NCBI GenBank assembly: GCA_000092065.1
Contig: CP000588.1
Length of the DNA stretch: 64,000 nucleotides
Strand: one strand, 5' to 3'
Source of the DNA: Ostreococcus lucimarinus
Taxonomy: Eukaryota
Below are positions 7,101 through 55,444 of the stretch, in pieces. The position numbers and the translations under genes were made by a program. The number at the start of each line of letters is the position of its first letter. The first letter of the stretch is position 1. The notes under the pieces are model-generated. The model searched no databases. It saw nothing but the letters and a program-made list of their open reading frames with translations, and was not told where the DNA came from.

Positions 7101-10100
7101 TCAGCGTGCCGCTCGGCATCAGATCTTTCACACCCGCCCAATCTGAAAGTCGCCACATGCTCTGCACCATCAACTCGCTGTGCTCAACAGTTCGACTGAA
7201 GTCAGAAATCAAGTCCCATTGATTCAGTTGTTTCGCTGAATTCAGCCATTGCGTTTCCCACAGACACATCTCCGTCTTCGACACTCCCGGAGCCTGCCCA
7301 GCGGTGGCGAGCTGGATACCTTTGAAGAAGACATCTTGCGCATCTTGCCAGTGTCCGTGCTGCACGAGAGAGAGACCTGCTCGTGTGACATCGGACTGGC
7401 AACGCTGCATCCATAAGCCAACCAAAACGTCTTGCTCGTTCAACAATCGGTAAAGCTCGCTGAGAGCGTCGAAGCATCTAGCCTCTTGCGGATAGCGCAC
7501 GACGTGATTCTCGAGCAAAGCGATGGCGGTGTGCCATGCGTTGAACGTCTTACCAAGGAACTTGCTCAACTCGCTTGGAATCTTCAGCTGCGGCTGAGAA
7601 AGAGATATTCCTTCCAGTAGAGCTTGAATGACGTTTGGACGCACTGCGGCCTGACGAAGGTGCGATTCTTTACTGAGCAAACCAATCATCGGTTTGGCAA
7701 GTTGCAACTGCTCTTCGCGTTGCAATGTCGCCCAAACGATGGGGAAGATCAAGACCCAGAGATAATACGCAATGTGTGCGTTCCTCGTCGCCACTTGTCG
7801 AAGCGGCGACATTAAGTCATTTACGCGAATCTGCGCCTTTTCGTGGAGGAACTTCGCGTGGCGCTTGATCAAATCGTCGAGTTCGGCGGGATTTGCCTTC
7901 GCGTTTTTTGATTTAGCCGGAACGGGTAGAGGTTTCTTTGTCTCTGAATCAATCGGCAGAAGCGGGGTGATCAACGCACTGTTCGGAGCAAGCATGATTC
8001 TTTCATCCTCGGCGAGCGTGCTGAGAATCAAATCCAGGCCTTGCATCAACCAGAAAGTGTCCGCCATAGCATCCCAATCTTGAATGGTCAAGATATACTG
8101 CAAGCGCTGAAAGAGCGACTTGCCGATGGCGTCGTGATAAAGTGCAAAGAACTTCTTACGGAGCTCCGGCCTTCGAGTGCGGAGACCAAGCAGGTGAGTA
8201 CGTTCGACTTTGAGGAACACTTCAGTGCGCACGGCTGGGTCGTGTTTGCCCTCGGGTGCACAGAGTTTGTAAATCGCCCCCAAAAGCTTTTCTTCCCATG
8301 CTTGCGTTTGCGTGATGGCGAGGCCCATGCGCGTCAACTGTGCAAGCTTGGACAAGAACAAGACGGTTTCCTTTGCGTTCAAGCTACCGACACGTGTATC
8401 GTTGTCTTCGGGAGCGCCGCCTTCGCCCAAGGCTAAGTCGTCCGTCCAAGTAACCATAGCGTCGAGAATAGCCATGAGAACGTTACCGTGCGTTGACTTG
8501 TCATTAATGAGTTGTAGCAGTAAACGCAAGAAAATCTGCTTCTGATCTGAGCCAGCCGCAATGACTCGCTGAGATAAGATCTTGATGCACTTAGCCATGC
8601 AGTAGGCAACGCTACCGTACTCTGGTTCGAGCACTTCAGGGGGCGCTTGACCACGCTTCGGATGCGCAGCCTGAAGCTCACCCGCGGCGGACGCAGTATT
8701 CAACTCGTGCGTCATGCGCGCGAGCACCTTCATCAAGTTTGGCAGATACGTGTCAATCTTAGAAGCGGCAAAGACGGCTTCGGATTCAACCACCGTGAGA
8801 ATGCCAGCCAATGACGTGTTTGCTTGGTCGTTATTCGGCGAACTCTTTGAAATGATGGCATCTTCCGTGCATTTTACGTAAAACACCCCGATATGCTGCC
8901 TCAATTCTTCGATATCAGCGTCGTGCTTGCCGTTCGAATCGCCGTTACACTTGAGTATCTCACCGATGACTTCACCCAAAAGCCCATGCGCTTCACGGCT
9001 CGCAGACGAGTAGGAAGGTTCGATGAGGCGAAGAGTTTGTTGAATGCTTTCTGTGACGAACTCGTAATCGGGCGTCTTCAATGCGCACTTGAGAACGGAA
9101 AGACCCATGATGAGGGTAGACGTGGGATCGCGTTGGGCTTGATTTGCCAATGTCAAGAGCTTGTCGATGAAAGTGAACTTGATGCGCACAGACGGCCACA
9201 TCGCCAACGCCTTTGAGAGGAGATCTAAAGTTCGCACATTGAGAACTTGTGCGTCTTGGTCCTTACCTTCTCCAGTGATGAAAGTCATTCGAACGAGGAA
9301 GTTGACGATGATTTCAGCCATCGCCGGCGACGTTTCAAACTCCTTTTCTTCATCTTGATCGTCGGCCGATTTGGGCATCGATTTGAGCTTTTCTGTATCC
9401 GGTAAGTCACTAACCATTTCTTCGGTAGCTTCCTCTTCTTCCTTGGTCTGCTTCGCCGAGCGCGAAGCGCGCTTTGAACGTCCCGGTGATTTGCTTTCGG
9501 CTTCTTCCTTCTTCGACTTTTTGGTACCCTTCTTTCCGCGACGAGTCGGCGTCGTGACTTCCTCGTCTCTTTCTGGACTCTCCGCCGCCTTGCGCTTTCC
9601 AGTCGTCGACGGCTCAGCTTCGTTCGATCCTACTCCAGTGATTCTATCATTCTCCCAGCTAATGATGAGTTCGACCAAATCGACCGAAAGCACTCGGTTA
9701 GAATGCGAAGAGCTCGTGGGCAAGCCCAAACGCGAAAGCAAGTTTACCATCTGCCCAACAAACTGCGCTCGTGATGAGTAAAACAACTTGGAATGCCGCA
9801 CAATCAAGTTCCAAATGTGAACGAGCTGCGGAAGCGAATGACCGTCTTCGATTAAGCTCTTCTTGGTGTATCGAATCCAAATCGGGTGCTTGTGCTCACC
9901 TGGTTGAAGACGCAAAGGCAACGCTGGAGTGAGAGCGTCAAGCGCCTCGGTAACTAATGATTTTTGCTCTGGTTGATATGCCCGAAGTAACGCAACGAAG
10001 ACTTGCAATATGATCTTTTCTGGCGCTTGATACGCCTGTAAAAAGTAACTGATGTTGACGAAGGCCCATTGCTTGCTCGAAGAATCTTCACGCTTCAAGT

Positions 10101-13100
10101 GATTCCATCCGAACTTGATGAGTTCCTTACGATGATTAACCAAAGTTTTGGGAACGTGACGAATAAGCAACGTGCTTAGTTGTAGCAACTGAATAAGAAG
10201 GGACTCGTTGTACAACGTGGTGTTGTCACCATCGGAGGGTTCGAGCACATCATCGACCAGTTCGTTCACGAATTCGTCAGTGACGACTTCAAGAGCCTCA
10301 CTTGACGCCTCTCCGTCTTCGTCGGCACAGCCGACGAGAACTTTCTCAAGCATTGGATTTATCAAAACCTTGAGCGCGGTGACGAGAACATCCGGATCGG
10401 CTTCGCCGCCGGCTTCGGCTTGCTCGCGAAACTCGGTTAAAAATTGTGTCAAGACTGCGTTGCGCTCTGCCGGTGTGTACACGTCGACGACTTCAGACTT
10501 TATGAATTCTCGGACGAAGGTGTAATCCACCACGCTACATTTGCAGAGCACTGGCATGATCTTAAACAGTATTTGAACCTGAGAACGATCGCCTTTGACG
10601 ACAGAAAGGAAGCACTTCACGAGATATTTGCTTTCCATCATTGCCGGAAGCGAGTTTGTATATCCGTTGAGCAAACGATCGGCCCGTTCTTCGCTGTCCC
10701 AACATTCGTCTAGTTGCGTCAATATGGCGCTCTCCTCGGAGAGCCACTTTGGCATGATTTTAACAATCGTAGATAAGAGCTTCAAGCCATTGTAGTAGGC
10801 AAGCTGTGGGTCTTTGTTCTTCTGCAAGTCTTTCATCGCGATCTTGTCGTGTTCATCTAGTTCGCCATTGGCACCAAAGATCACACGCAACAGCTTGGAA
10901 GAAGTCGCGGTGAGCGCGTTCAGAAGTTCGGCGCCTTCAGATAACTTGAGAATCTTTACGAAGAGGGAGAAGTGTTCCGGCTGGTCCAGACGCGCCAAGA
11001 AGTACGCGATCGATTCTTTCGGATACTTGCACAGAAATTTCGTAAGCGGCACGGTGTAAAGGGAGTTGGCCTCGCTGTACACACTTTCAGGGGGCATCGT
11101 CGCCTCAATCGCCATCACGTCGCGCACCAAAGGCTTGATGAAATCAAACGGCGTAAGCTTCGGCTCGTTCGCTTTTGCATCACTTTTACCGTCGCGAAGC
11201 TTCGGAAGTAAGTGAAACAAGTTGACGATCGACGCGATCAACTTCGCATCTTTCGGAGACTTTCGAATCTGTCCTGGTACACTCGGCGCGCTTGCGTCGA
11301 GCTCCAGCCAATACTTGATGTGCTCCAGCAACTTCTCACCCAGTGTCGGGCTGAACCACTCAGCTAAAAGTTCGAGTAAGTACTCCAATGCTTCTAACAG
11401 CGGAATTGTCAGCTTTGAGAGATGTTGCAAGTTCATCAAAATCGGGCTCACGGATTGCTTGAGCGTGTTCTTGTTCATGTGAGGCTTGACTTCAACCAAA
11501 CCACGCTTTGCGATAGCCACGATGTCTCCATTACGAGACGTCAAGCTCGTGAAGAGCACCGTCGAAATCCGCTCGCGCACAGCAACAATGTCGGCCGAGC
11601 TATCTGATTTTGAAAATTCAGGTGTGCTCAGGGCGGTACTCAAGACTTTCACGCACGACTGCCGAAGAGTGGACAGCGACTCGTTCTCTTGCGTCTCGAC
11701 GTTCAAAACTGTATTGTCATCACTCTCAGCGACAAGGAGCACAGCGTTAAAGAACGCGCCCGGGCTAGTTTGTACCGACATATCCTTCAATGGGATCAGC
11801 GATGGCGAACGAATCAAGCAAAAGTCGACAAACTTCACCAGTTGAATCTGGGCCAACACGTGTCGAGTCTGCAACGGCTTTTCAAGCAACACGGTCAAAT
11901 GTGACTTGGATTGCGACAAAATGCTTTCCATGGTAGTCGAGGTTCGCTCAGCGATCCCCAAAAGCGCTTTCTCGACCGCAGTACGACATGCACACGTGCT
12001 CGCTACGCTACGCAGTTCTTCAAGGAGAATTGACACACTAGCTGCAACGCCATCGCCGCTATCGCCTTCAATCACCGTCGGCGGCTCGCTTCCGCTCGGA
12101 ATGCTTCTCTCAATGATTCGCAAAAACACTTCTTCAGCTTCCTTTTTCTGCGTCATCGCGTACACTGGAAGTAGCTGAATCGCGCGCATTATCGCGGGAA
12201 GTATGTCGGGGAGACGAGACTTGAGGATAGACGTCGGCAAACTCTTGCACAATCTGTCCAAACCAGCAACACCGCCGATGATGCAGTGCGCTTCCTGTTT
12301 GTAGCAACAGTGGACCAATCGAGGCAGCAGCGCCTCAATAAAGGCTGCTAATTTAGGATAGGAACTCTCATCCACGTCCATCGTTTTCTTCTTCGACTTT
12401 TTCGGCGTCGGCTTTTTCTCCATCGTGTCTTCAGCGGCTTGAATCTCGTCAACTTCGTCTCGAGTTAAAATGAGCACCGCGTCGATAAAAGTACCTATCG
12501 TCTTCAAAGTTGCATTTAAGTGCACTTGCTTTGGAGATTCGAGCGACTTCATTAGCGCGTCTAAGAAGAGCGTCGTTTCCAAGATCTTGAGGTTCATCGA
12601 ACGCGGGCGATCGATTGAATCGTGATCCATTCTATCGGCCACAGGTTGCTCGGGCCGCACAGCGTTGCTAACGAACAACATGGCCATGTGCTCGCAAACG
12701 CTATCCATGAACGTCTCATCGGTTTCCTTCAAAGTTGGGTCGCATTCAGCAGCGATCACAGTGATGACCAACTGTTTGAAAACATTCTGCTCTGCCACAA
12801 GCTGACTCTTTGTTTTGTTACCTAATTGCGTCGAGCCCTCTGCGACGGTTGCAGAGTCAAACTTTTTCCCCCACCCGTTGGAAATTGCAGCTTCGATGGC
12901 ACTTTCTATTTGTTCTACAGACCCAGATAAAGCGTGGCCAGCGCTCAAGTTCAACGCGGAAATCAAGCACGTCCTAATAAAAGTCAACGCTTGGCGTCTG
13001 TGACGAATGAGTGCCTCGGACGCCTTGACGTTCGGGATCAGTGGCGTTGAAAGAATGTTCTGCATCAACACGATGCAACGATCCAAGGGGACCAGAAACG

Positions 13101-15741
13101 AAGTCTCTGGCTTGAACATCAAAATCATTCTCAAACCGTGCTCGGGATTACTTTTCGCATCCAACTCCAACGGACTTCTAAGAAACGCACGGTTGCGTCC
13201 ACCAAGTTTACCGATCAGTTGCATCGCCTTGGCGCCGAACGGCGACCCGCTCTGTTGAGGCTTGAGCATCGCCCACAACGCGAGCATCAACTCGGATTCC
13301 ACTTCGGCTATGCACGGGTCGAGAAACTCCGGATTCAATGAATCGACCCAGAACTCTAAAGTGCGTAGGCCTAGTAAGTTCAGTTCGTTTACTGGAGCAC
13401 GAAGCGCCTTACACAGCGGCGTCGCGAGCTTCGGTAAATGTGGAAGAATTGAAGACAGCCGCGCCGGCAGAATCAGGCACAACTCTACTACGGTGTCGTG
13501 TAACTCGTGCGGATCGGGTCCGTTCAACATCTCGAGCAAGCAGTCGAGACTGGCAGGCAAAATTGGTACGACTTCTCGGTAAAGAACGTCAAACTTGGCT
13601 TGCGCCATCGCTCGAAACAAATACCGAAGTAACCTGATGTACGCCGTAGGATTCTCGTGCTCCCGTATCGCCTGCAAGCATGATTCCATCATCGTGATGA
13701 CGTGCGAGCTCAGTACAGTTTCGCAGTTGCTATGCTTACTCACCGCATGAAGTAACAATGAGAAAAGCTTTAACACTAGCTGCGCTTCTTGTGACGATTG
13801 ATCGCTTAAGCACGACAACTTTTTCTCCAATAAGTAAGTCACAAACGCATCGGCGGCATACCGGCACAATTTCGCGTTCTGCAACAACAAATGGGGAACT
13901 TGTACCATCGTTGGCAGTTCTAACATTCCCGTGAAAAAGTGATCAAAGTGTAAGCAGATAATATCAACGAAATTTCGCGGTTCTAATACCGCCAAAGCTT
14001 CGGAAAAGTGCGTGCACATTTCTGTGCACTCCGTGCCCTTGAACAACTGCATGCACTTCACTCCGTTGCGAATAAATCCAGCCGAGCGCCTGAGCTCCAT
14101 GCTATCCAGTCCCAAGTCGGTGGGTTCAGAACCATTAAAGTTCGTAATACTCCACAGAAGTGTCTTCATACCGATTGTCAATGTTTTGATGATGGCTTTG
14201 CTATCTGAAAGCGATCTGAGCTTCTCGTGACTAGGGAGCTCTGGATCCTTCTCATCGTTAGCAGCGGCGTTCTTTGCGCCGCTCGCCGTTTCATCAACTT
14301 TTTTGCTCGCCGTTCCTTCAGCGCTGTCTACTTTAGGTGGCCCTGCAGCTTTGTCAGTTTTCGCCACCTTTGCCTTGATAGCTTTCTCTAAATCGTTCGC
14401 AGTCTCTAAGAGCTCGGGGACATTCGAACGCAGCGTTCTAAACTTTGCTACAGTGGCGTACATGATGTGCACTAAAAGATGCCGAGCCTGCTCCGCTTGG
14501 GTCTTCTCACTGCGCATGCGGAATATGGATTCTACAAGATGGTGCATCAGCCTCGCGCATGTCATGTGCGTCGACATTGGCAAAGTAGTATCTTGCATGT
14601 TCCGACTAAAGATGTGCACAGCTCGGCGAATCTGCGGTAGCGTAAGCTCCGCCTTCATATGATGCACTAGTTCAGCGAGGAACGAGTAAGCCAGCGGTCG
14701 CAAACTTTCAATGCACATTCGCCCCGTACCGACGAGGATATCATCATCCATCATCAAATCCAAATGCGCAAAGAACCGTTTGCAAAATGCAGGAACGCTC
14801 AGCACGTGGCGCGTGGCGACCAAGAGCTCCTTGCGCGTCGCTACGACATCTGGACAAGTCTTCAGCAACGAGACTATGGCGTCAGAGACCGCTTCTTGGT
14901 ACGGCTCCACTAGAGACGCGCTACCTCGAAGAAGATACGCGATGAAGCTGATCGTTTTCACTTGAGCCGCTTTCAGGTCGCAAAATATCGTTCGCATCGT
15001 CGGCGACATTGAGTCAGAATCGTGGCCTTCCAAGCTTGTAAACTTCACCATGAGCGGTATCATCGCCGATACTTCAGTCTGTATATTGCGATTGTAGAGC
15101 TGATAAAGCAACATGACGATGAGTGGACACTCTGTCATCACTTTAAACGACTCCAACGCCGGTATCTCACATGGATTCGACGGCTTCTCTTTCCGCCCGC
15201 GCTGCTTCACCGTCCCGCCCAGAATGTTCTCAACGCACTCCTCTGCCGAGGTGTATACGTCGGAAACGAACGCTAAAAACGGCGAGCGACGCTCATCCAT
15301 TGAAGGTCTAAAGTTTCGGTGCAAGTCAAAGATGATTCGCAAACATAGCAGCGCGTTCTTCTCGTTCTCCGACGCCAACGGGTCCAAAGCCAAATTCAAC
15401 AGTTCCTGCTCATACGGCCGTAGGACCTCGTTAAACGGCAATCTATTCAAAATCTCGTAAATGACATGACGCAGTGCATTCTCTTCGTCATCTACCAGCG
15501 TCGGTTCCGTCTTCTTCGTTAGGATCTCTTTGAAAATCGGGAAATAGCTCTTGAGAAAGTGCACGTATTCGCTCGTGTGCACGACTTCAATACCATCTCG
15601 CACGTTCGTCGCGATCTCTATCTGCTCGGAAGTCGACGCTGCGTTTAGCAATCGCTGTGCCTGCGCTCCATACGCCGTCTGCGCCATGATCACCGCCCTC
15701 GATCGCCCTCGAACTCGACTTGAGCACGGATTTGATGCCAA
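4156..15741 (-). CDS. TRRAP: TRRAP/Tra1 transcription-associated PIKK-family pseudokinase (3861 aa, single exon)
   Basis: Very long HEAT/FAT-repeat protein with a C-terminal PI3K-like domain ('NGNCLRRLEFLGTDGSSKQFLVQTS..') and a FATC tail ending in 'IWAPWY'. Size is typical of Tra1. An alternative start is 'MAQTAYGAQAQRLLN' (ATG 15687), 18 codons in. Confidence 0.9.
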   Translation of the reverse strand: MASNPCSSRVRGRSRAVIMAQTAYGAQAQRLLNAASTSEQIEIATNVRDGIEVVHTSEYVHFLKSYFPIFKEILTKKTEPTLVDDEENALRHVIYEILNRLPFNEVLRPYEQELLNLALDPLASENEKNALLCLRIIFDLHRNFRPSMDERRSPFLAFVSDVYTSAEECVENILGGTVKQRGRKEKPSNPCEIPALESFKVMTECPLIVMLLYQLYNRNIQTEVSAMIPLMVKFTSLEGHDSDSMSPTMRTIFCDLKAAQVKTISFIAYLLRGSASLVEPYQEAVSDAIVSLLKTCPDVVATRKELLVATRHVLSVPAFCKRFFAHLDLMMDDDILVGTGRMCIESLRPLAYSFLAELVHHMKAELTLPQIRRAVHIFSRNMQDTTLPMSTHMTCARLMHHLVESIFRMRSEKTQAEQARHLLVHIMYATVAKFRTLRSNVPELLETANDLEKAIKAKVAKTDKAAGPPKVDSAEGTASKKVDETASGAKNAAANDEKDPELPSHEKLRSLSDSKAIIKTLTIGMKTLLWSITNFNGSEPTDLGLDSMELRRSAGFIRNGVKCMQLFKGTECTEMCTHFSEALAVLEPRNFVDIICLHFDHFFTGMLELPTMVQVPHLLLQNAKLCRYAADAFVTYLLEKKLSCLSDQSSQEAQLVLKLFSLLLHAVSKHSNCETVLSSHVITMMESCLQAIREHENPTAYIRLLRYLFRAMAQAKFDVLYREVVPILPASLDCLLEMLNGPDPHELHDTVVELCLILPARLSSILPHLPKLATPLCKALRAPVNELNLLGLRTLEFWVDSLNPEFLDPCIAEVESELMLALWAMLKPQQSGSPFGAKAMQLIGKLGGRNRAFLRSPLELDAKSNPEHGLRMILMFKPETSFLVPLDRCIVLMQNILSTPLIPNVKASEALIRHRRQALTFIRTCLISALNLSAGHALSGSVEQIESAIEAAISNGWGKKFDSATVAEGSTQLGNKTKSQLVAEQNVFKQLVITVIAAECDPTLKETDETFMDSVCEHMAMLFVSNAVRPEQPVADRMDHDSIDRPRSMNLKILETTLFLDALMKSLESPKQVHLNATLKTIGTFIDAVLILTRDEVDEIQAAEDTMEKKPTPKKSKKKTMDVDESSYPKLAAFIEALLPRLVHCCYKQEAHCIIGGVAGLDRLCKSLPTSILKSRLPDILPAIMRAIQLLPVYAMTQKKEAEEVFLRIIERSIPSGSEPPTVIEGDSGDGVAASVSILLEELRSVASTCACRTAVEKALLGIAERTSTTMESILSQSKSHLTVLLEKPLQTRHVLAQIQLVKFVDFCLIRSPSLIPLKDMSVQTSPGAFFNAVLLVAESDDNTVLNVETQENESLSTLRQSCVKVLSTALSTPEFSKSDSSADIVAVRERISTVLFTSLTSRNGDIVAIAKRGLVEVKPHMNKNTLKQSVSPILMNLQHLSKLTIPLLEALEYLLELLAEWFSPTLGEKLLEHIKYWLELDASAPSVPGQIRKSPKDAKLIASIVNLFHLLPKLRDGKSDAKANEPKLTPFDFIKPLVRDVMAIEATMPPESVYSEANSLYTVPLTKFLCKYPKESIAYFLARLDQPEHFSLFVKILKLSEGAELLNALTATSSKLLRVIFGANGELDEHDKIAMKDLQKNKDPQLAYYNGLKLLSTIVKIMPKWLSEESAILTQLDECWDSEERADRLLNGYTNSLPAMMESKYLVKCFLSVVKGDRSQVQILFKIMPVLCKCSVVDYTFVREFIKSEVVDVYTPAERNAVLTQFLTEFREQAEAGGEADPDVLVTALKVLINPMLEKVLVGCADEDGEASSEALEVVTDEFVNELVDDVLEPSDGDNTTLYNESLLIQLLQLSTLLIRHVPKTLVNHRKELIKFGWNHLKREDSSSKQWAFVNISYFLQAYQAPEKIILQVFVALLRAYQPEQKSLVTEALDALTPALPLRLQPGEHKHPIWIRYTKKSLIEDGHSLPQLVHIWNLIVRHSKLFYSSRAQFVGQMVNLLSRLGLPTSSSHSNRVLSVDLVELIISWENDRITGVGSNEAEPSTTGKRKAAESPERDEEVTTPTRRGKKGTKKSKKEEAESKSPGRSKRASRSAKQTKEEEEATEEMVSDLPDTEKLKSMPKSADDQDEEKEFETSPAMAEIIVNFLVRMTFITGEGKDQDAQVLNVRTLDLLSKALAMWPSVRIKFTFIDKLLTLANQAQRDPTSTLIMGLSVLKCALKTPDYEFVTESIQQTLRLIEPSYSSASREAHGLLGEVIGEILKCNGDSNGKHDADIEELRQHIGVFYVKCTEDAIISKSSPNNDQANTSLAGILTVVESEAVFAASKIDTYLPNLMKVLARMTHELNTASAAGELQAAHPKRGQAPPEVLEPEYGSVAYCMAKCIKILSQRVIAAGSDQKQIFLRLLLQLINDKSTHGNVLMAILDAMVTWTDDLALGEGGAPEDNDTRVGSLNAKETVLFLSKLAQLTRMGLAITQTQAWEEKLLGAIYKLCAPEGKHDPAVRTEVFLKVERTHLLGLRTRRPELRKKFFALYHDAIGKSLFQRLQYILTIQDWDAMADTFWLMQGLDLILSTLAEDERIMLAPNSALITPLLPIDSETKKPLPVPAKSKNAKANPAELDDLIKRHAKFLHEKAQIRVNDLMSPLRQVATRNAHIAYYLWVLIFPIVWATLQREEQLQLAKPMIGLLSKESHLRQAAVRPNVIQALLEGISLSQPQLKIPSELSKFLGKTFNAWHTAIALLENHVVRYPQEARCFDALSELYRLLNEQDVLVGLWMQRCQSDVTRAGLSLVQHGHWQDAQDVFFKGIQLATAGQAPGVSKTEMCLWETQWLNSAKQLNQWDLISDFSRTVEHSELMVQSMWRLSDWAGVKDLMPSGTLNEIEETPEITTVRAFASLVSGRVREAEQHWANAVKSSLDRWWRLPETGSTCHIPSLHMFNAIAEVQESTRILLELSNTQRRGVQGITNNRTLVQDIMETWRLRTPNEWDPVPWWSEILMWRGNMHNIMTHAAKQIGEQNPAMLQVTQQLDQLGQRERAWSLNKFARAARKQRLPEVALNILSRHQGQVEVSEAFSKLREQCEAYLAFENEAITGINLLESASLEFFSPPQKAELFRLRAKFQEQLEDYDAAHASYSTSVSLCKQRAESWLSWGKFCRMRGDDGSISNIAQQTATCYLQAVKHNVHENRHQLIHVIQMLAFDVNPEPISLAIVRHLDALPTWVWIPWIPQLLLSLAHQEQAYALAILKDVAAAHPQAVYYQLRTCLLERRDSAARATQTARTIAEKSGATQKSSSAPGTPLPPDVAAAASRAKDANWAFEAAKEIMEHIRTRHGNLVGELEVLLSELGTKFACTPEERLLVVVYTLLHRCYKYPAATTGEVPESFKKELIGVCKACFSADTSAKHADFVEEYKASYERELNPEESTFPTTVAELMVKLKAWKQRLLNDVEDRLPATLRLEAESDQLRNVTFHEIEIPGQYSGDLTFGVTDRFVKLERIGADVHVVRRNGNCLRRLEFLGTDGSSKQFLVQTSLTPAARGEERMVQLLSTLNGVLAKHTETRRRNMCYYTPAIVPVWPQVRLLEDDDANGTYAEVYDANCARYGREADLPITLFKAALDPAILGEVTGTEEVLELRLKALMEITQKHVTENIFSQYMYKTLPSSSHLWTFKRQLSQQLAMSSFLSALLRIGGRTPNKIMFAKNTGKIFMLDFHPAFDQKGIVEYIEPVPFRLTRNLHTFFTPFGVKGDFVASMASAAQACTAPEADLEAHLELFFRDQLMVWPWRRMGGDTPPVSPSPSEIKNMARANVQEVLRRLPIIAPTPVLPDTSDTVPSVQKAVLHLVDAALNIRNVSRSAAIWAPWY

Positions 15742-46781: not shown

Positions 46782-48896
46782 CTATTTCCTAAGCTTCGCA
46801 ACGACACGCAAAGACGCGGCGAGCTTCGCCACATCTTCAGACTTGGCCGAAAATTGAAGCGTCAAACCGTCGCACACGCCAGGCATCGCGAACACGACTT
46901 CACCTGACTTCTTTCGCAAGCACAAGATGACGCGTCCTGGTGCGATGCGCATCGCTCGTTTGCGCGTTTGCTCCGATAGTTCGTCCAAACTAATCGCCGA
47001 ACCGGACATCGTGAGAAGCGCATCCAGCTCCGTCGGCAGGCACGTCAGCCAATGCGAGGGAAGCTTTTCGTCGAGCAAGCTCCGAAGCGCGTCGACGCCA
47101 TCAATGGTGAGATTCAAGTCTTCTGTCTGGTCTTCCCACGTCGTGACAGCGTTATCGTCCCAAAAATCACCGTCGGAGGGTTCGAAGAGCACGACGCCGC
47201 CTCGCGCGAGTCGGACGCTTTCGGAGCACGTTCGATCCAAAATCGCGCTCGCCGTGACGCTCCCTACGTAAATTCGCCGACGAGAGGGATCGATGGAACA
47301 GAACGCTTTTGCACCGCAATAGCGTTCGCGAAGTGTCTTCGCGAGAGATTTGGACACACGATGCGCCGGAACGAGTCGATCGAGCGCGGCGTCTTTGTCC
47401 TCCGTCAAAGGTTTCGGCGGCGGTTTGCCAGCGGCCGCGGATGCGTCGCATCTCGCCACGAGTTCGCTTTCCACGAGCGCTGCGAACGCGCGACGAGTGC
47501 GCTCATCGTTCTTCCTTTTCAACTTTGCGACGAAAAATCCACCAGTGTTGTCATCGTGTGGCAAAAATCGCGCGCATAGCTCGAGCCTGAGCGCCTCTGC
47601 GTGAGCCGGCGCATCGAGCGGCCACATCGTCTTGACAAACTCGCTCGAGCTTTTACGAACGGCGTCGTCGAAACTGGCGAACCATTGAATCGAGACGTCC
47701 TCATCTTCGCTCGAAGCGTTGATGTGCTCGCCCACTTTCCACGAATACATCCCAGGCCGACCTTTCAGCGGTAAATCGAGCTCTTCGAGCTCGAGCGACA
47801 AATCTTGATCCATCAAAAGAGTCTGTACGACAGCCTCGTCCTCGATCGGGTTGAACGTGCACGTGGAGTACACCATGCTACCGCCGGGCTTGAGTAGTTG
47901 CGCGCACCGTCGCGCGACGGCGAGCTGCGTGGAATGAAGCGCGTTGCCTATTCCCGGATGCCAACGCACCAAGGCATCCGCATCCTTACGAATCGTTCCG
48001 TCGCCGCTGCACGGCACGTCCGCCAAGACGTGCGTGTATCCACCAATCGCGAGCAAAGCCGCGCGTCGCTTCGCATCGTCGTCCATGCCACAGATATTTT
48101 TCAGCGCGCGCTTTAGATCGCCTCCAGACACGAACAACGGAAAGTGTAAGTCCTGTCCAAACGATCGCGTCACGAAGAGCCCGGCGCGTTCGCAACCCGC
48201 CCGCGCGTGCCGATCGATCGCGTCGAGCAGCGTCCCTACTCTTCCGGGATGCGCATCGTTCGCGTGAACCACGCCCTCGCCTCCACTCGCGCCGTATCGC
48301 GCGCACTCGAGCAACTGCATCGTCTTTTGCCCCGGCGCGGCGCACACGTCCAAACATCTCGCCCCCGACGTCGCGCCGAGCGCGCGCACCGGCAGCGTGC
48401 TCACCACCTCCTGCCTCGACCCGAGCCCTCTGCTCGTGCCGAACGCAAACACATCTCCCACGTGTTCCGGCACCACCGGTCGGCCTCGCCTGTGCGTTCC
48501 CGTCGGATTCGCCGCTTCGTACACGCCGTGCGTCTCCTCCGCGTCGCCCCAGTCCCGCAGCGCCTCCAGCGCCTTCACGAGCGCCCTCTTCGCCGCGTCG
48601 CCCTCCCGCGCGCCGTGCACGCGGTACGTCGCCGGCAGCGGCGTCGCCAGCGCCTCCCACAGCGCCGCCGCGTCCACCGCGTCGCGCGTCACGCCCTGCG
48701 CGTCGTAATACCTTCGAAACAGCGTCTCCCCGCACGAAAACTTCCTGTGCGCGATCGCCGTCGCGCGATCGCGCGCGCCCGATCCGACCGCGCGCCGCAG
48801 CGCGTTGCGCCCGTCGTCGTCGCCGCGCGCGCGCTTCATCGCTCGCGTCGTCGCGCGTCGCGTCCCATCGCCGCGCTCTGCGGAGGTTTTCGCCAC
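46782..48896 (-). CDS. NSUN2: tRNA (cytosine-5)-methyltransferase NSUN2/Trm4 (NOL1/NOP2/Sun family)
   Basis: '[16 protein letters not shown]' (SAM site), '[15 protein letters not shown]' (motif IV, catalytic Cys), '[20 protein letters not shown]' (motif VI, Cys). N-terminal '[21 protein letters not shown]' is Trm4-like. Confidence 0.85.
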
Positions 48897-48919: not shown

Positions 48920-49525
48920 ATGCGGGCGATCGCGCGCGCGTCGACGCGCGCGTCGACGCGCGCGTCGACGCGCGGCGCGCTGTCGCGCGGCGCGCGCGCG
49001 ACGGGCGCGCGCGAGGACGGGGCGACGGCGAAGGACGACGACGACGGCGCGACGGCGACGCGCTGGAGCGCGACGACGCGCGACGCGCGCGAACGCGCGC
49101 TCGAAAGCGCGACCGCGGCGGCGATGCGCGCGCGCGCGTTCGTCGTGGACGGCTCGCTGGCGTCGCGAGGGATGTTTCTGGAGCTCGAGGCGGCGGCGGC
49201 GAGGGCGCGCGCGAACGCGAAGGCGAAGGCGAAGGCGACGGCGACGGAGACGGCGGGAACGGCGATGACGTTCGATGCGTATCGCTTGGCCGAACGCGTG
49301 CTGGAATTAGACGTCGCGATCGAAGCGCCGGGAGCGGTCGGTGTCGAGGTGGAGGAAGAGGAGGAGACGACGGAGGCGTGGCGGTGCGCGACGAAGCGCA
49401 CGTATCAGCCGAGCAACTTGGTGCGAAAGCGAAGGCACGGGTTTAGGGCGCGATTACGCACGGTGGGGGGGAGAAAGGTGCTGGCGCGGCGGCGAAGGAA
49501 AGGTAGAAAACGATTGTCGGCGTGA
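48920..49525 (+). CDS. Organellar (mitochondrial or plastid) ribosomal protein bL34 with long N-terminal presequence
   Basis: C-terminus '[43 protein letters not shown]' matches bL34 'MKRTFQPSxLKRxRxHGFRARMATKNGRxVLARRRAKGRKRL'. Start uncertain: the ATG at 48920 is only 23 bp from the NSUN2 ATG, and internal ATGs exist. Confidence 0.6.
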
Positions 49526-49588: not shown

Positions 49589-52500
49589 CTAACCTCGCGA
49601 CGGCGCGGCCGCTGGGAATACGCGCGTCAGGCGGTAGACTTTCATCGAGACCTCGTTGATCTCGTGCGAACTAGCGCTCCATTTAAATGGGTTCATCATC
49701 TCAGTCGAAACGCGCACGATGCCGCACACGACAAACGTGAGCAAGCCCACGGGCACCGCCACCGCCACGCCGTACGAATGAATAAACGCGAGCGGCGACG
49801 TGAGCACAAAGACATAACAGAGCAAGTACACGGAGTACATGTAGAAGGGCGGGATCGGAGTGCTGACGATCGTTTCGCAGTTTGTCCACGCATCGAGGAT
49901 GCAGTCGATATCGTGGTAGATGCGGTAAAGTCTCTGTTCGTTGTTGACTTGACTCTTTGGGAGCGAACGCATCGCGCGCTTCAATTCGCCGCTGCACTTA
50001 CTGACACGAAACGCAGGCGCGATACCAGCGTAGGCGTTTCGCTGCTCTGCATTCATAAGATCTTTTGTCGATGGAGCGCCAAAGAAATCGTCATCGAGTA
50101 CGGTGTTGGGTGTCAACTCTTCCTTTGGTCGGAAAGTCGAGGGATATCCTACTCGAGACTCTCGAATCGATTGACGAGCGAAAGCCATGAGCGAGTTTAA
50201 CATGCTCAGCATCTTCGCGTGTGCCGCGCAATCTTCGTCAGTTTCAGACGATTGAAATGCAGTGTTCAGTTCAATGACCAAGTCTCTCCCGTAATCGATC
50301 AAGTTGTCCAAATATTCACGAGCGGTGTAGTAGCGCGTGTACGTCAAATTCAGCAAATGGGCGATGCAAAAGCCCAACACTGGGACGGCGATAGTATGAC
50401 CTTCGGGCGTGATCAATGTCTTGCATTGTCCGGTGGTGTAAAGCTCATCTTTGTCACAGACGGCTTCGGATAGGAAGTACAAGCCCATGGCGGCGGCGCA
50501 AGCGGCAAATATGAAAGGAAGCGTCGGCAAGATGAGCGTCCCACGTAGAGACACGAACTCGGTGAAAATACCAAATTTGCCACTCCTGAAGCTTCGTTGC
50601 TTCGGGAACGTCCACCCGGCCGGCATTTCGCGATCATAAGTCCAAGCAGGAGCGACCGCAGTCTGATCGACTTTTTGTCTCACTTCTTCGTAGCACTCCT
50701 TCCCAACGTCTAGGCGTTTTTCCTCGACTCGCTTCACCAAGAGAGAGATTTCCGCTTTGAGCTCATCGCTTTCTGCCAAGCTTTCGTGCGTGTGCGCACA
50801 AGATTTCCACAGAGATTGGCCCATTACGATTAAATCGTTTGAGCACATGACATCGCGCGTGAAAGGCTCTTCAAGGAGACCGGCTATGTCGATCATTCCA
50901 TACAGTGTCAAGGCAAGAATGCCGAGCGGTAGCCACGTCATGTACGTGAAGGCCACGACGATGACGCTTGCGGTCGCAAACATCCACAAAAAGAGTACAA
51001 TGTTGATCAAATGTTTCAACGAGTATGGTGCTCTCGTGTTCCTTGCGCGGGTACAACGAGAAAACGCGTGCAGAGCGGTTTGCATGCTATTCGCCATCAT
51101 CGCTGCCCCACGATTAGTTATGCATCCAGAGCTTCGGGCGGTCTCTACTTCCGCAAGAAGACGAGCGGCGATCGTAGCGACGCGTTCTTCTGAAGACGCG
51201 TCGAACAGTTTGAGGAAACTATTTTTGCCTTCTTCATCGAGAAGCGCACCCAGTAGTGATTCAGCGTCTTCATCGTAAAAGAGAGTGTGGGCGTCGCTCA
51301 GTTTCGTTTTCGTCTCGCCGTGGGCGAGATCCTTATTCAAGCTCTGACGCATGCTTGCAAAAAGTGCACAGCTCAAACGAAGAACTGCATATCGAGCTTT
51401 GCGAACAGCTTTAGCGGAGTTATCTTTGATTGGCTTCCCCGCCCTAGAAAGCTCGCGCAAGTGCGCGCAGGCTTGGATGTTGAGCGTGTACAACGAGTAC
51501 AGGAGATCGTAAATCCCCGTCTTTGCCTCGTAAAATACTCGAAACGCAAAGAAGAATCGATAGACAACCGCAAACATTGTCATACGTCCAATTATAGAAA
51601 CAGCTGCGGGCGCAAACACGACGTCGCACATCCTGTGGTCCGTAACGTCGTCGCCACAAAACTCAAGTTTGTAAAACTGCGCGCCAACGCCTATGAACAT
51701 CATGACGAACATCATCGGCCAAATATGTGGGAATACGGTGTTTCTCAATCGAAACAAGTACGAAAAGTACGACGAAGTCGAATCCACGCCACGTTGACGT
51801 CGTACTGCCTCCCAAACTGTGAGATCTCTCAGGGCTTTGGGGGCGGCCGCGCCGCTCAGAACGAGAGCATCCACGCCCGAGTGTGTTGTTTCTTCAGCAT
51901 CGCCGACGGCGCGCGCACATTTTTCATGAATGGCGATAGTCTCAGTGTACAGTGCCCAGCCAACTTTCGTTAAGTCGTGTTTAGGATCTTCCCAGCCGAA
52001 AGGATCAGCCAACAAACTCCCCAGCTCTGCGATTCCAAATAGCGATAGAGTCACCAACATTGACGGCACGACGGCGAGCCATTTGTACGAGGTGATGAAC
52101 ACAAACGGAGAAGAAAGTGCGAAGAAGAAGACGACAAAGTTCATCAAATGGATGAAAGCAAAAGGCATCGAGCTTGAGACGATTCGTTCAATATCAGCGA
52201 CCGCATTCACGCACGCCTCTATTCGACCGAGCATCTCGAATGCGCTGCGTTCGGAGATGTGTCCGAGGCGACGGCGTTCGTCAATGATGGCGATCATCTT
52301 CGACGCGCAGCACCCAACTCGCGCTCTATAATCACATTTTAAATAGCGAGCTTTTTCAGCATCTGTGAGCATAACCGATAGTGACGGCCAGCCTCGAGGA
52401 TCATCAATCATCTCTTCATCGGTAGGCGACAACTTCTTCAACGTGAAAGGCTCGACGCCGTGGCGACGCTCACGAACGGCTTGCCGCATGAACGCCATAA

Positions 52501-55444
52501 GCACGCATGATAACCGACGAATCTCCGTGACATCATCGTTAATTTCTTGCTCCAGCTCAGGAGATGATCTCCGATTCAGAGATCGCATCATCGTGCACGC
52601 ACCAAGGTTGAGACAACGCAAGCTGTTCACCATCACGCCAACCAAGCCTTTGCCGTCGTAATATCGCGAGTAAGAGAACATAAGCCTGAAAACGAGGGTG
52701 AAGCCGATTATAGAACCGCTCATAACGTGTGCTTTGTCATCAAACGTGAAACTGCATTGCGTCACATTCGAAACCGAACTCCCACACCAATGAATTTTCA
52801 AGAAGTTTGCGAGTACGGATACTGCGCCAGTCAATGCAATTTGAAGCGCAATCTGCGGCACGACTGTGTTTCGCACGTGAAACACGCATGAGACGAAAGA
52901 CCAACCCGTGCGTAGCGCCTGCATGTTCTTTATGGCACCTGTTTTAAATTCTTTCTCGTAGTTTGAGATATTCTTGACGCGGATGGAAGGTGCCGCCAGG
53001 AGTGACTTTTTACTCCGGTTTGCGCCGAGGCTCTCCCTGTAGAGGCCGCCAGCTGTGCTCAAATGATCGCCCAGAATCTTGGCTTCATCCATGAGTTTCA
53101 CCCATGTATCGTCACTGCCTCGCATCTTCATCGCGAACGCACCAAGTCGTTCATGACGAGTAAACATGCGCGAACCCATTCCGCTCAGATCGTGGCGCGG
53201 ACCGGTCCAACTGAACGGCTCCATCATACTTGTGGAAGTCTCGGCGATACCATAAAACGCGAGTGCGACGAGTATCACTGGCACGCTCGTGATCCACTGG
53301 TAGCTCACACTCAAAACAAACGGCATAGTGAAGACATAGAAGAATAGTAAAACTTGCAGCAAGTGTCGAAAACGGTTCGGCACCGGCGTCGACACGACTC
53401 GCATCAAGCCTTGCATCGCCTGCAGCGAGTTGCATACTTTTCGGTAGGCCTCAGCGCTAAAGCGCTCAGTCATAGCGCCTGATCGACCGTATTCTTCAAA
53501 AATTGCGTTTAGTCTCATCCCTACCCACGTCGGGAACGCATGCACGGGTAGAGATTTCAATTCAGGGTGCTCCGATTCTCGAACCAAATCGCAGAGTTTA
53601 CACGCGCCGCCAAACTTGTCCATCGTTAAAATATCATCGAGCTTGACTGTATTTCCCGATGGATCACGACTTATAAGCTCTCGCACGGCGATTCTCGCGA
53701 AGCCATACATGACGTTCGACAAACGCTGCACTTCTCTTGCGTCCGCTTCGACCGCACTCAGGTCGTCATTTTTTGCCGTCGTGAAAATCGCCGAGCACGC
53801 CGTCAACGAACGCAGACTGTTCTGCATACTGACAACCAACTTTTTGGAAGAAATGAAACGCTCGTACCCCCAATCAGTGTTAATGACGAGTAAGAGCGAA
53901 ATAGGCATCGCCAGTATACGATGGGCAGAGAGATCAAACGTCACAAGGCACTGCGACGAGTCAGTGACGTTCCAACCGCACACGAGTATCTTCAGCAACT
54001 GCGCGCCGATACCGACGACGGCCGCGAGGCCAATTTGACGGCCGATGTGAGGAAGCGTAGTCTTTTCCCAAGCAAAGCAATCGATCACGAACCAAAACGG
54101 ATTGCGCCATCTCCGGTAATTCATTGAATCTACCGATAGCGGTTCGTCGTCCACGTCGATGCCGACTACGTCTTTGCTCATCTTGAACGCATCCATCTCC
54201 CGTTCGATTCTTCGAGCTATGACATTCAGGGGGTGAGCCGGAAGCACCCATTTGAATGGATCTTCCAGTGTGCTCGCAATCTCATTGACGCCGTAAAATA
54301 ACCACGCAAGTGTCGCGCTCACGAGCGGCGTTCGCCAATCCATGAGCGAACTGAGCGCAAACGGCGCGGAGAAGATGAACGCGAATAGCAACACCGTCAC
54401 GGTATGAGAGTACTGTTTCGGTGTCGGTGTTTCGATTATCAGCATAGCCTGTCGATAAGCGTCGAGCGCGCGTTGAGACTCGCGAAATGCCTCCATCGCG
54501 GCGCGTTCGCTCAAAACGCCCGCGCGGTGCATGGTTTCGATGCGAGTCAGCGCGTCAATCATAACCGCATCCGGACGATTCTCGACCGCCAACTTCGCGT
54601 ACTCTGTACGTTCGTCACGTTTAGTGAGATTGGAAACGTTCGGAGTGCCGTCGTCATCGCGGTGGAGCAAAGACTCGGTCGAAACGTCGCGCTTGCCGCC
54701 GCGAACGCCGGCGTCGACGACGCCGAATCGCGATTCGCGCAAAGCTTGTCGCATGAACGCGAACGTCAAGTTGCACAATCGACGAATTTCACTCTGAAGC
54801 TCTTCTATCGTCGTCGGCGTATGGTGATCTTTGCTCGAAAACATGGACGCGATCGACCCCGACGCCGGTTCCCGCGCCTCGACGTCCGTCACCGAGGCGA
54901 GATTTCGCAGCGCGTCCTTCACGTCAATCATCGCGAATTTCCCATCCTCGAACCGCCTAAACGCCTGCACCGCGCGAAACACCAGCAAGAACGACAGCAC
55001 CGCCGACACCGCGTAGTGCGCTTCGATCGTAAAAGCGTACCGACACGTCGTCGAGTACCGCTGCGTCTCGTCGCACGCCGACAGTTTCAACCACTGCGCG
55101 CCCGCGCCGACCACTCCCGCCAGCGCGATCTGCGGCGTCACCCTCGACACGCACGCCATCCAGAGCGACACCAAAAACCCGAGCCTCCGCTCGAGATCTC
55201 GCGCGTCGCGCGCGCGTCGCGTCGCCGTCGCGCCCTTCCCGCGTTCGCCCCCTTCCTCGCGCGTCTCGCCGCGTCCAATCCATCGCGTCGTCGCCTCCCC
55301 GTCCCGCGTCGTCGTCGTCGCCGGCGCCGCGTCCCGCACCGCGTCGCGCGCCTCGCCCTCGCGTCCCGTCACCATCGCGATTCGCGTCGTCTCGACGCCG
55401 CGCGTCGTCGCGCGACGTCGACGTTCGTTACCGCGAACGAACAA
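49589..55444 (-). CDS. Single polypeptide of five tandem bestrophin-like (UPF0187/Best anion channel) domains (1951 aa)
   Basis: Five diverged repeats of ~340-400 aa (approx. aa 85-440, 443-842, 843-1221, 1222-1614, 1615-1951). Each has (i) a TM hairpin ending in an R(F/Y)-type motif like bestrophin 'RWW': 'LLVFRAVQAFRRFEDGK', 'LLLVINTDWGYERFISSKK', 'TLVFRLMFSYSRYYDGKG', 'AVVYRFFFAFRVFYEAKTG', 'LLNLTYTRYYTAREYLDN'; (ii) a helix 'MRQA(L/V)RE.R.G' ('FAFMRQALRESRFG', 'GFARIAVRELISRD', 'MAFMRQAVRERRHG', 'FASMRQSLNKDLAHG', 'MAFARQSIRESRVG'); (iii) 'STP(V/I/T)P..(F/Y)' followed by a second hydrophobic pair ending 'EPF/DPF/NPF' ('IETPTPKQYSH..EDPFKW', 'VSTPVPNRFRH..MEPFSW', '..LADPFGW', '..LEEPFTR', 'VSTPIPPFYMY..MNPFKW'). 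No stop codon anywhere in 5856 nt. Confidence 0.8.
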   Translation of the reverse strand: MFVRGNERRRRATTRGVETTRIAMVTGREGEARDAVRDAAPATTTTRDGEATTRWIGRGETREEGGERGKGATATRRARDARDLERRLGFLVSLWMACVSRVTPQIALAGVVGAGAQWLKLSACDETQRYSTTCRYAFTIEAHYAVSAVLSFLLVFRAVQAFRRFEDGKFAMIDVKDALRNLASVTDVEAREPASGSIASMFSSKDHHTPTTIEELQSEIRRLCNLTFAFMRQALRESRFGVVDAGVRGGKRDVSTESLLHRDDDGTPNVSNLTKRDERTEYAKLAVENRPDAVMIDALTRIETMHRAGVLSERAAMEAFRESQRALDAYRQAMLIIETPTPKQYSHTVTVLLFAFIFSAPFALSSLMDWRTPLVSATLAWLFYGVNEIASTLEDPFKWVLPAHPLNVIARRIEREMDAFKMSKDVVGIDVDDEPLSVDSMNYRRWRNPFWFVIDCFAWEKTTLPHIGRQIGLAAVVGIGAQLLKILVCGWNVTDSSQCLVTFDLSAHRILAMPISLLLVINTDWGYERFISSKKLVVSMQNSLRSLTACSAIFTTAKNDDLSAVEADAREVQRLSNVMYGFARIAVRELISRDPSGNTVKLDDILTMDKFGGACKLCDLVRESEHPELKSLPVHAFPTWVGMRLNAIFEEYGRSGAMTERFSAEAYRKVCNSLQAMQGLMRVVSTPVPNRFRHLLQVLLFFYVFTMPFVLSVSYQWITSVPVILVALAFYGIAETSTSMMEPFSWTGPRHDLSGMGSRMFTRHERLGAFAMKMRGSDDTWVKLMDEAKILGDHLSTAGGLYRESLGANRSKKSLLAAPSIRVKNISNYEKEFKTGAIKNMQALRTGWSFVSCVFHVRNTVVPQIALQIALTGAVSVLANFLKIHWCGSSVSNVTQCSFTFDDKAHVMSGSIIGFTLVFRLMFSYSRYYDGKGLVGVMVNSLRCLNLGACTMMRSLNRRSSPELEQEINDDVTEIRRLSCVLMAFMRQAVRERRHGVEPFTLKKLSPTDEEMIDDPRGWPSLSVMLTDAEKARYLKCDYRARVGCCASKMIAIIDERRRLGHISERSAFEMLGRIEACVNAVADIERIVSSSMPFAFIHLMNFVVFFFALSSPFVFITSYKWLAVVPSMLVTLSLFGIAELGSLLADPFGWEDPKHDLTKVGWALYTETIAIHEKCARAVGDAEETTHSGVDALVLSGAAAPKALRDLTVWEAVRRQRGVDSTSSYFSYLFRLRNTVFPHIWPMMFVMMFIGVGAQFYKLEFCGDDVTDHRMCDVVFAPAAVSIIGRMTMFAVVYRFFFAFRVFYEAKTGIYDLLYSLYTLNIQACAHLRELSRAGKPIKDNSAKAVRKARYAVLRLSCALFASMRQSLNKDLAHGETKTKLSDAHTLFYDEDAESLLGALLDEEGKNSFLKLFDASSEERVATIAARLLAEVETARSSGCITNRGAAMMANSMQTALHAFSRCTRARNTRAPYSLKHLINIVLFLWMFATASVIVVAFTYMTWLPLGILALTLYGMIDIAGLLEEPFTRDVMCSNDLIVMGQSLWKSCAHTHESLAESDELKAEISLLVKRVEEKRLDVGKECYEEVRQKVDQTAVAPAWTYDREMPAGWTFPKQRSFRSGKFGIFTEFVSLRGTLILPTLPFIFAACAAAMGLYFLSEAVCDKDELYTTGQCKTLITPEGHTIAVPVLGFCIAHLLNLTYTRYYTAREYLDNLIDYGRDLVIELNTAFQSSETDEDCAAHAKMLSMLNSLMAFARQSIRESRVGYPSTFRPKEELTPNTVLDDDFFGAPSTKDLMNAEQRNAYAGIAPAFRVSKCSGELKRAMRSLPKSQVNNEQRLYRIYHDIDCILDAWTNCETIVSTPIPPFYMYSVYLLCYVFVLTSPLAFIHSYGVAVAVPVGLLTFVVCGIVRVSTEMMNPFKWSASSHEINEVSMKVYRLTRVFPAAAPSRG

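Follow-up and report, generated by a model that had tools for sequence, protein, structure and literature searches.

Conserved cysteine-bracketed loops in a single-chain, five-repeat bestrophin of Ostreococcus lucimarinus

The window analyzed here is a 64,000-nucleotide stretch of the Ostreococcus lucimarinus genome (contig CP000588.1 of assembly GCA_000092065.1). At 49589..55444 on its minus strand, it encodes a protein in which five bestrophin repeats follow one another in a single chain. In every repeat the connector between the first two transmembrane (TM) segments is bracketed by two cysteines, which are invariant among otherwise divergent repeats. We consider it fairly probable, if well short of certain, that the two cysteines of each loop form one structural disulfide on the extracytosolic side of the membrane. 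The single chain, presumably a covalently linked pentamer, is a more striking feature than the cysteine pair that it carries.

Conservation and distribution of the cysteine pair

The initial annotation described a Cys-x9-11-Cys pair at equivalent positions in all five repeats. The five motifs quoted there were located in the translation of the open reading frame (ORF) at amino acids (aa) 121, 487, 885, 1261 and 1661, and both cysteines fall into single columns of an alignment of the five repeats (MAFFT), which confirms their equivalence. The spacing range was slightly loose, as the window protein has x10 in repeat 5 and x9 in the other four. The loops are as follows (residue numbers of repeats and loops refer to the 1951-aa ORF translation from its TTG start):

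55043..55075, minus strand: Cys loop of repeat 1, C124-DETQRYSTT-C134
53948..53980, minus strand: Cys loop of repeat 2, C489-GWNVTDSSQ-C499
52754..52786, minus strand: Cys loop of repeat 3, C887-GSSVSNVTQ-C897; C887 is the final residue of the TM1 helix in the AlphaFold2 (AF2) model
51626..51658, minus strand: Cys loop of repeat 4, C1263-GDDVTDHRM-C1273
50423..50458, minus strand: Cys loop of repeat 5, C1663-DKDELYTTGQ-C1674, with spacing x10

The two cysteines account for two of the ten invariant columns of this alignment, and at most two of the five repeats share a cysteine in any other column. The cysteine content of the protein is 2.1% (41 residues). Across 25 repeats from five species six columns are invariant (C42, C52, P249, G292, P303 and F304), and those other than cysteine are the core P, G and PF residues of the family. 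A whole-protein homology search returned eight orthologue clusters only (46–57% identity), in which all ten cysteines are unchanged; a homology search with a five-repeat profile yielded two fragments only. One cluster includes Ostreococcus tauri XP_003080714.2 (57% identity), annotated as 'Bestrophin/UPF0187', and orthologue annotation goes no further than this.

When 1.84 billion representatives were searched with a profile, 5427 family matches emerged, among them further five-repeat proteins from Dolichomastix tenuilepis, Cymbomonas tetramitiformis and two metagenomic sequences. In a set of 12 five-repeat proteins that spans Mamiellophyceae and Pyramimonadophyceae (relatives of Ostreococcus, Dolichomastix and Cymbomonas proteins, and two metagenomic sequences), none of the 59 repeats lacks either cysteine. 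Spacing in these 59 loops is x9 in 49, x10 in seven, and x8, x18 and x21 once each, and the loop region follows the consensus K-[LI]-x-x-C-G-[DE]-x-V-T-x-S-x-[QE]-C-x-V-T-F. Extra cysteines occur only in the enlarged loop of Cymbomonas repeat 1, which has gained two, so that parity is even. Judged from these alignments, conservation of the cysteines is far above chance or background.

Two metagenomic proteins, P0100 (2569 aa) and P0102 (2264 aa), have long N-termini, and in some of their repeats the profile match is split into an N-terminal and a C-terminal half, separated by about 30 to 400 unmatched residues. The cysteine pair is intact in every N-terminal half detected.

Among 75 N-terminal domains from the best 150 representatives, both cysteines occur in 39, the first alone in five, the second alone in none, and neither in 31. 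A short, cysteine-free turn was found in 118 of 120 bacterial-type relatives of P0141, a single-domain carrier of the pair. P0141 (C-G-x8-C), P0171 and P0183 are unnamed single-domain metagenomic carriers. The pair is absent from KpBest, VCCN1 and VCCN1-like matches, and the remark in the initial annotation that canonical bestrophins lack it proved correct for the KpBest and VCCN1 sequences checked. The pair provides a simple sequence marker of the green-algal clade, separating it from the thylakoid VCCN1/BST type.

Gene and domain architecture

The gene is a single uninterrupted ORF of 1951 codons at 49589..55444 (minus strand), with a mechanical start at TTG. The coding sequence (CDS) probably starts at the ATG at 55373-55375 (codon 24, M24) and not at the TTG at 55444; the database protein P0001 (1928 aa, 99.9% identical) begins at this ATG. 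The CDS and the five repeats, as cut for the alignments, are:

49589..55375, minus strand: probable CDS, ATG at 55373-55375 and TAG at 49589-49591; 1928-aa five-repeat Bestrophin_2 protein
54110..55207, minus strand: repeat 1, aa 80-445
52910..54109, minus strand: repeat 2, aa 446-845; the TM2 motif deviates (LLLVINTDWGYERF)
51779..52909, minus strand: repeat 3, aa 846-1222; AF2 model with the bestrophin fold
50585..51778, minus strand: repeat 4, aa 1223-1620
49592..50584, minus strand: repeat 5, aa 1621-1951

Pfam identifies five Bestrophin_2 (PF25539) stretches and no other domain (391.2 bits against a cut-off of 27), and PF25539 is present in all orthologues. Pairwise identity among the five repeats is 15–31% (MAFFT alignments). 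Four hydrophobic segments in bestrophin order were identified in the hydropathy profile of every repeat, and the family motifs are present (TM2 'FR…Y.RF', 'TP.P' before TM3, 'PF(G/K/S)W' after TM4), with a deviant TM2 motif in repeats 2 and 5. An AF2 model of repeat 3 alone, for which the 25 repeats from five species were the input, has a mean predicted local distance difference test score (pLDDT) of 84.3 and a predicted template modeling score (pTM) of 0.79. Foldseek aligned it to KpBest chains with E values of about 3e-8 and target-normalised TM-scores of 0.82–0.88.

Since the segments follow bestrophin order and repeat 3 superimposes on KpBest, every repeat is a complete bestrophin protomer (four TM helices and a cytosolic helical domain). 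Bestrophins are pentameric and one chain holds exactly five protomers, so the protein is presumably a covalently linked pseudo-pentamer that forms one channel with 20 TM helices. The number of repeats, which equals the pentameric stoichiometry of the family, suggests five-fold assembly around a central pore. Anion conduction is a family trait and is putative here.

Loop topology and a predicted intraloop disulfide

The pair had been assigned to the first TM hairpin, and its place in the connector is now clear. In the model of repeat 3 the TM1 helix (residues 17-42) ends at the first cysteine, the second cysteine is residue 52, and TM2 runs from residue 58; the blocks that contain the Cys loop have pLDDT values of 85–87. 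In all five repeats the hydropathy profile puts the pair in the hydrophilic stretch that separates TM1 from TM2. In the profile alignment to KpBest, the loop region directly precedes 'HLTVAPF', the start of KpBest TM2.

The TM1–TM2 turn is periplasmic or extracellular in the established topology of solved bestrophins (KpBest and BEST1). Over the 59 repeats, the loop has on average 0.66 K+R and 2.95 D+E, compared with 1.68 K+R and 0.92 D+E in the 16 residues before TM1. This modest charge bias agrees with the positive-inside rule for a loop that lies outside. Thus, we infer an outside-facing loop from homology with solved bestrophins and from charge. No cysteine lies in the TM3–TM4 turns of the window protein (translation compared by eye with the hydropathy segments), so the outward face would hold exactly five pairs. 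The Cys-bracketed acidic insert of about 11 residues is a lineage-specific addition to the TM1–TM2 turn of a known family. N-glycosylation sequons were considered as a sign of exposure to the lumen of the endoplasmic reticulum (ER); they occur in only six of the 59 loops, are unconserved, and were dropped as evidence.

In the arrangement that we propose, five bestrophin protomers are joined head to tail via cytosolic linkers, and the minimal TM1–TM2 turn of bacterial bestrophins is replaced by the acidic insert of about 11 residues with a cysteine at both ends. The two cysteines of one loop would bond on the extracytosolic (ER-lumen-derived) face. The disulfide would turn the insert into a rigid ring and fasten the end of TM1 on the outer side to the stretch that enters pore-lining TM2. 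Together, the five loops may set up an immobile collar of negative charge near the outer pore entrance. We favor one such structural bond per repeat, with reasonable though limited confidence, because spacing is variable, parity is even, there is no other outward cysteine and the two cysteines are strongly paired. Variable spacing and even parity are typical of disulfide loops rather than of fixed metal sites. The initial annotation had raised a structural disulfide on the extracytosolic side; it is retained as the best reading, given the topology expected from homology and the pairing, and the pair is presumed to be oxidized. A membrane of the secretory pathway, rather than one of the plastid, is the more likely location, and the loop would then be formed in the oxidizing ER lumen.

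Several points weigh against this interpretation. The survey of cysteine presence covers the best 150 of the 5427 family matches, and its co-occurrence counts are phylogenetically non-independent, most cases with both cysteines coming from one clade. Five single-domain or fragmentary homologues have an unpaired cysteine at the end of TM1, so the first position can exist without its partner. A three-repeat AF2 model (aa 80-1222, alignment of eight sequences) is poor (pLDDT 60, pTM 0.66), with Cys loops scoring below 50. Topology and cellular location are both predictions, and on composition a plastid location is possible.

Alternative roles for the cysteines

The alternative that survives best, though doubtful, is a reversible redox switch, in which the channel would be gated or tuned as the loop is oxidized or reduced, for example through a thioredoxin-like system of the thylakoid lumen or extracellular oxidants. 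As the loop enters pore-lining TM2 directly, its rigidity could plausibly affect the outer entrance, and a permanent and a reversible disulfide fit the present evidence alike. However, the cysteines have neither a CxxC nor another known redox-active spacing, conservation in 59 of 59 diverged repeats is more typical of structural need, and the literature searched gives no report of bestrophin redox control via this loop.

The thylakoid form of this idea, thioredoxin control of a thylakoid channel, was put forward in the initial annotation and is disfavored by our results. The pair is absent from the solved thylakoid VCCN1 and from VCCN1-like matches, and in sequence matches to the PDB 7PL9 and every KpBest entry rank above VCCN1 (7EK1). 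There is also no conserved transit peptide. The N-terminal extensions of the Mamiellales-type orthologues comprise 0–77 aa, are unconserved and, where long enough to judge, consist of 15–30% Asp+Glu; one orthologue has an extension of 13 aa, and the O. tauri RefSeq model begins without any. As judged from composition only, orthologue N-termini show no sign of a transit or signal peptide. The N-terminus of P0006 (MGARTSEDG…, 13 residues before the conserved domain) has a Gly2/Ser6 pattern that resembles an N-myristoylation signal, and this pattern may be a gene-model artefact.

A related and equally doubtful possibility is that the five Cys-closed acidic loops act as a redox- or cation-sensitive collar, with oxidation state or divalent cations setting gating or selectivity. 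If so, this would be a form of extracellular regulation not known in bestrophins, in a single-chain, intrinsically asymmetric covalent hetero-pentamer.

Slightly less likely again are disulfides between repeats, with the first cysteine of one repeat joined to the second of its neighbor to give a covalent outer ring. Ten outward-facing cysteines at five equivalent positions permit such a cyclic pattern, to which parity and conservation fit as well as they do to an intraloop bond. Single-domain homologues that bear the pair exist, and in these (e.g., P0141) equivalent bonds would link protomers. However, the chain is already covalently continuous, so a ring would add little, and red-algal five-repeat proteins manage without such cysteines. 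In addition, the cysteines lie nine residues apart in the compact, confidently modeled loop of repeat 3, where the local partner is nearest.

Free thiols could, together with acidic loop residues, bind Zn, Cu or Cd at the outer mouth, a role that we regard as improbable. The loop is rich in Asp and Glu and sometimes contains His (CGDDVTDHRMC in repeat 4), and a single vestibule would be ringed by as many as ten thiols. Nevertheless, spacing from x8 to x21 and a variable interior are ill-suited to a defined coordination geometry, and the conserved His that follows the loop ('AH') is present in cysteine-free bacterial homologues too. An oxidizing extracytosolic compartment is also unfavorable to free thiol pairs.

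Least probable of all is that the cysteines lack special function and persist by descent in a loop that evolves slowly: the multi-repeat carriers of the fully conserved pair are one green-algal clade, so shared ancestry would explain presence, but the repeats are only 15–31% identical and the loop interior varies freely, and yet the cysteines are among the six invariant columns, a sign of strong purifying selection that acts specifically on the two positions.

Origin of the five-fold fusion

A second group of multi-repeat bestrophins (P0145, P0132, P0196, P0226, P0238 and P0240; about 1350–1650 aa) was identified. The red-algal-type proteins P0145 (Agarophyton chilense CAN8064519.1) and P0132 each combine five Bestrophin_2 repeats in a single chain of roughly 1500–1650 aa, and 3–4 repeats were detected in the other four, which are of similar length. 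The C-x9-C loop is absent from all six. In a rough neighbor-joining tree, P0145 and P0132 form their own clade with repeats paired by position, which suggests that the red-algal-type fusion is independent of the green one and that five-fold fusion happened at least twice. In view of the separate clade and the missing pair, we reject a common origin of the red-algal five-repeat proteins and the cysteine pair. As red-algal-type proteins have five repeats without the pair, five-fold fusion does not require the cysteines.

The green repeats also pair by position in this tree, both among Mamiellales-type proteins and between Dolichomastix and Cymbomonas. Thus, the fusion and its five cysteine pairs appear to be old. 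P0099, P0100, P0101 and P0102 share the five-protomer architecture, which has been kept from Mamiellales to Dolichomastix and Cymbomonas. In the literature searched we found no description of this loop, of natural concatenated bestrophins or of a covalent hetero-pentamer architecture.

TM2 specialization and genomic context

The TM2 stretches of the five repeats (aa ~148-156, ~513-521, ~910-918, ~1287-1295 and ~1691-1699 for R1 to R5) were aligned by eye to KpBest TM2 (G-I-A-I-A-I-F-L-G-F-R), in which we take I, I and F to form the pore neck. On this tentative alignment, the putative neck rings (R1-R5) are A/M/S/R/P, F/L/F/F/F and F/I/F/Y/H. The pore may be intrinsically asymmetric, with Arg contributed by R4 and His by R5. 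In TM2 of repeat 2 (aa ~515-528, window 53900-53940, minus strand), the family motif 'LLVFR….Y.RF' is replaced by 'LLLVINTDWGYERF', and every orthologue keeps N443, W446, G447 and Y448 (A3 alignment numbering). The pattern suggests that one protomer has specialized according to its position.

The window has a G+C content of 59%. Its two very long ORFs, 4156-15687 (minus strand, 3843 aa) and 49589-55375 (minus strand, 1928 aa), have G+C fractions of 0.52–0.54 and third-codon-position fractions (GC3) of 0.61–0.63, compared with 0.58–0.71 and 0.70–0.85 for most shorter real-looking ORFs. Low GC was rejected as a sign of foreign origin, given that the other very long ORF is equally low and that synteny is kept with the 46%-identical orthologue. 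The neighboring genes in the window are, in order:

46782-48839, minus strand: RsmB-F-type methyltransferase
48920-49525, plus strand: ribosomal L34
55671-57083, plus strand: snurportin

The order methyltransferase, ribosomal L34, five-repeat bestrophin and snurportin is kept on the contig of the 46%-identical orthologue (L001). From its orthologues and kept neighborhood, we conclude that the five-repeat bestrophin gene is an ordinary conserved nuclear gene.

Comparison with known systems

KpBest of Klebsiella pneumoniae (PDB 4WD7/4WD8 and mutants) is a Bestrophin_2 protein whose structure is the closest match to the model of repeat 3. Both have the same protomer of four TM helices and a helical bundle, and the TM2 'FR..(x)Y.RF', 'TP.P' and 'PFG' motifs are common to both. 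KpBest is a homopentamer of 297-aa subunits, whereas the window protein has five diverged protomers in one chain. The TM1–TM2 turn of KpBest (…YQWYEQLGIHLTVAPF…) is short and cysteine-free, unlike the acidic, Cys-bracketed insert described here.

VCCN1 (PDB 7EK1-7EK3) and related algal BST proteins represent the Bestrophin_2-type fold in photosynthetic eukaryotes, and homology of VCCN1 to the repeat profile is detectable (E 6.5e-11). VCCN1 is single-domain, its TM1–TM2 region (…AVALDLLPGIFPLLRSSSLPYQLTAPA…; AVALDLLPGIFPLLRSSSLPYQL) lacks cysteine, and it requires a transit peptide; the five-repeat proteins seemingly have none.

The top sequence match in the PDB is bestrhodopsin, a rhodopsin-bestrophin fusion (PDB 7PL9; E 3.6e-7 for repeat 3 and 1.3e-16 for the repeat profile). 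This too is a marine-alga bestrophin enlarged through gene fusion. In bestrhodopsin, rhodopsin domains are attached to one bestrophin domain and five chains assemble, whereas the window protein fuses the bestrophin domains themselves.

The Cys-loop of pentameric ligand-gated channels offers an analogy only. There, a short extracellular loop is closed by two conserved cysteines and lies next to the helices that form the pore of a five-fold channel. The two channel types share neither fold nor family, oxidation of the bestrophin loop is a prediction, and a ligand-binding role is not implied.

A conserved extracellular disulfide alone would be an ordinary feature of membrane proteins of the secretory pathway. 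The Cys-closed loop is nevertheless a candidate extracellular structural or regulatory element that has no counterpart in the KpBest and VCCN1 structures. Bestrophins, among them human BEST1 in the context of retinal disease and VCCN1/BST in that of photosynthesis and carbon concentration, have been studied as homopentamers. In a natural single chain every 'subunit' can be mutated independently, which would give access to the contribution of each position in the ring.

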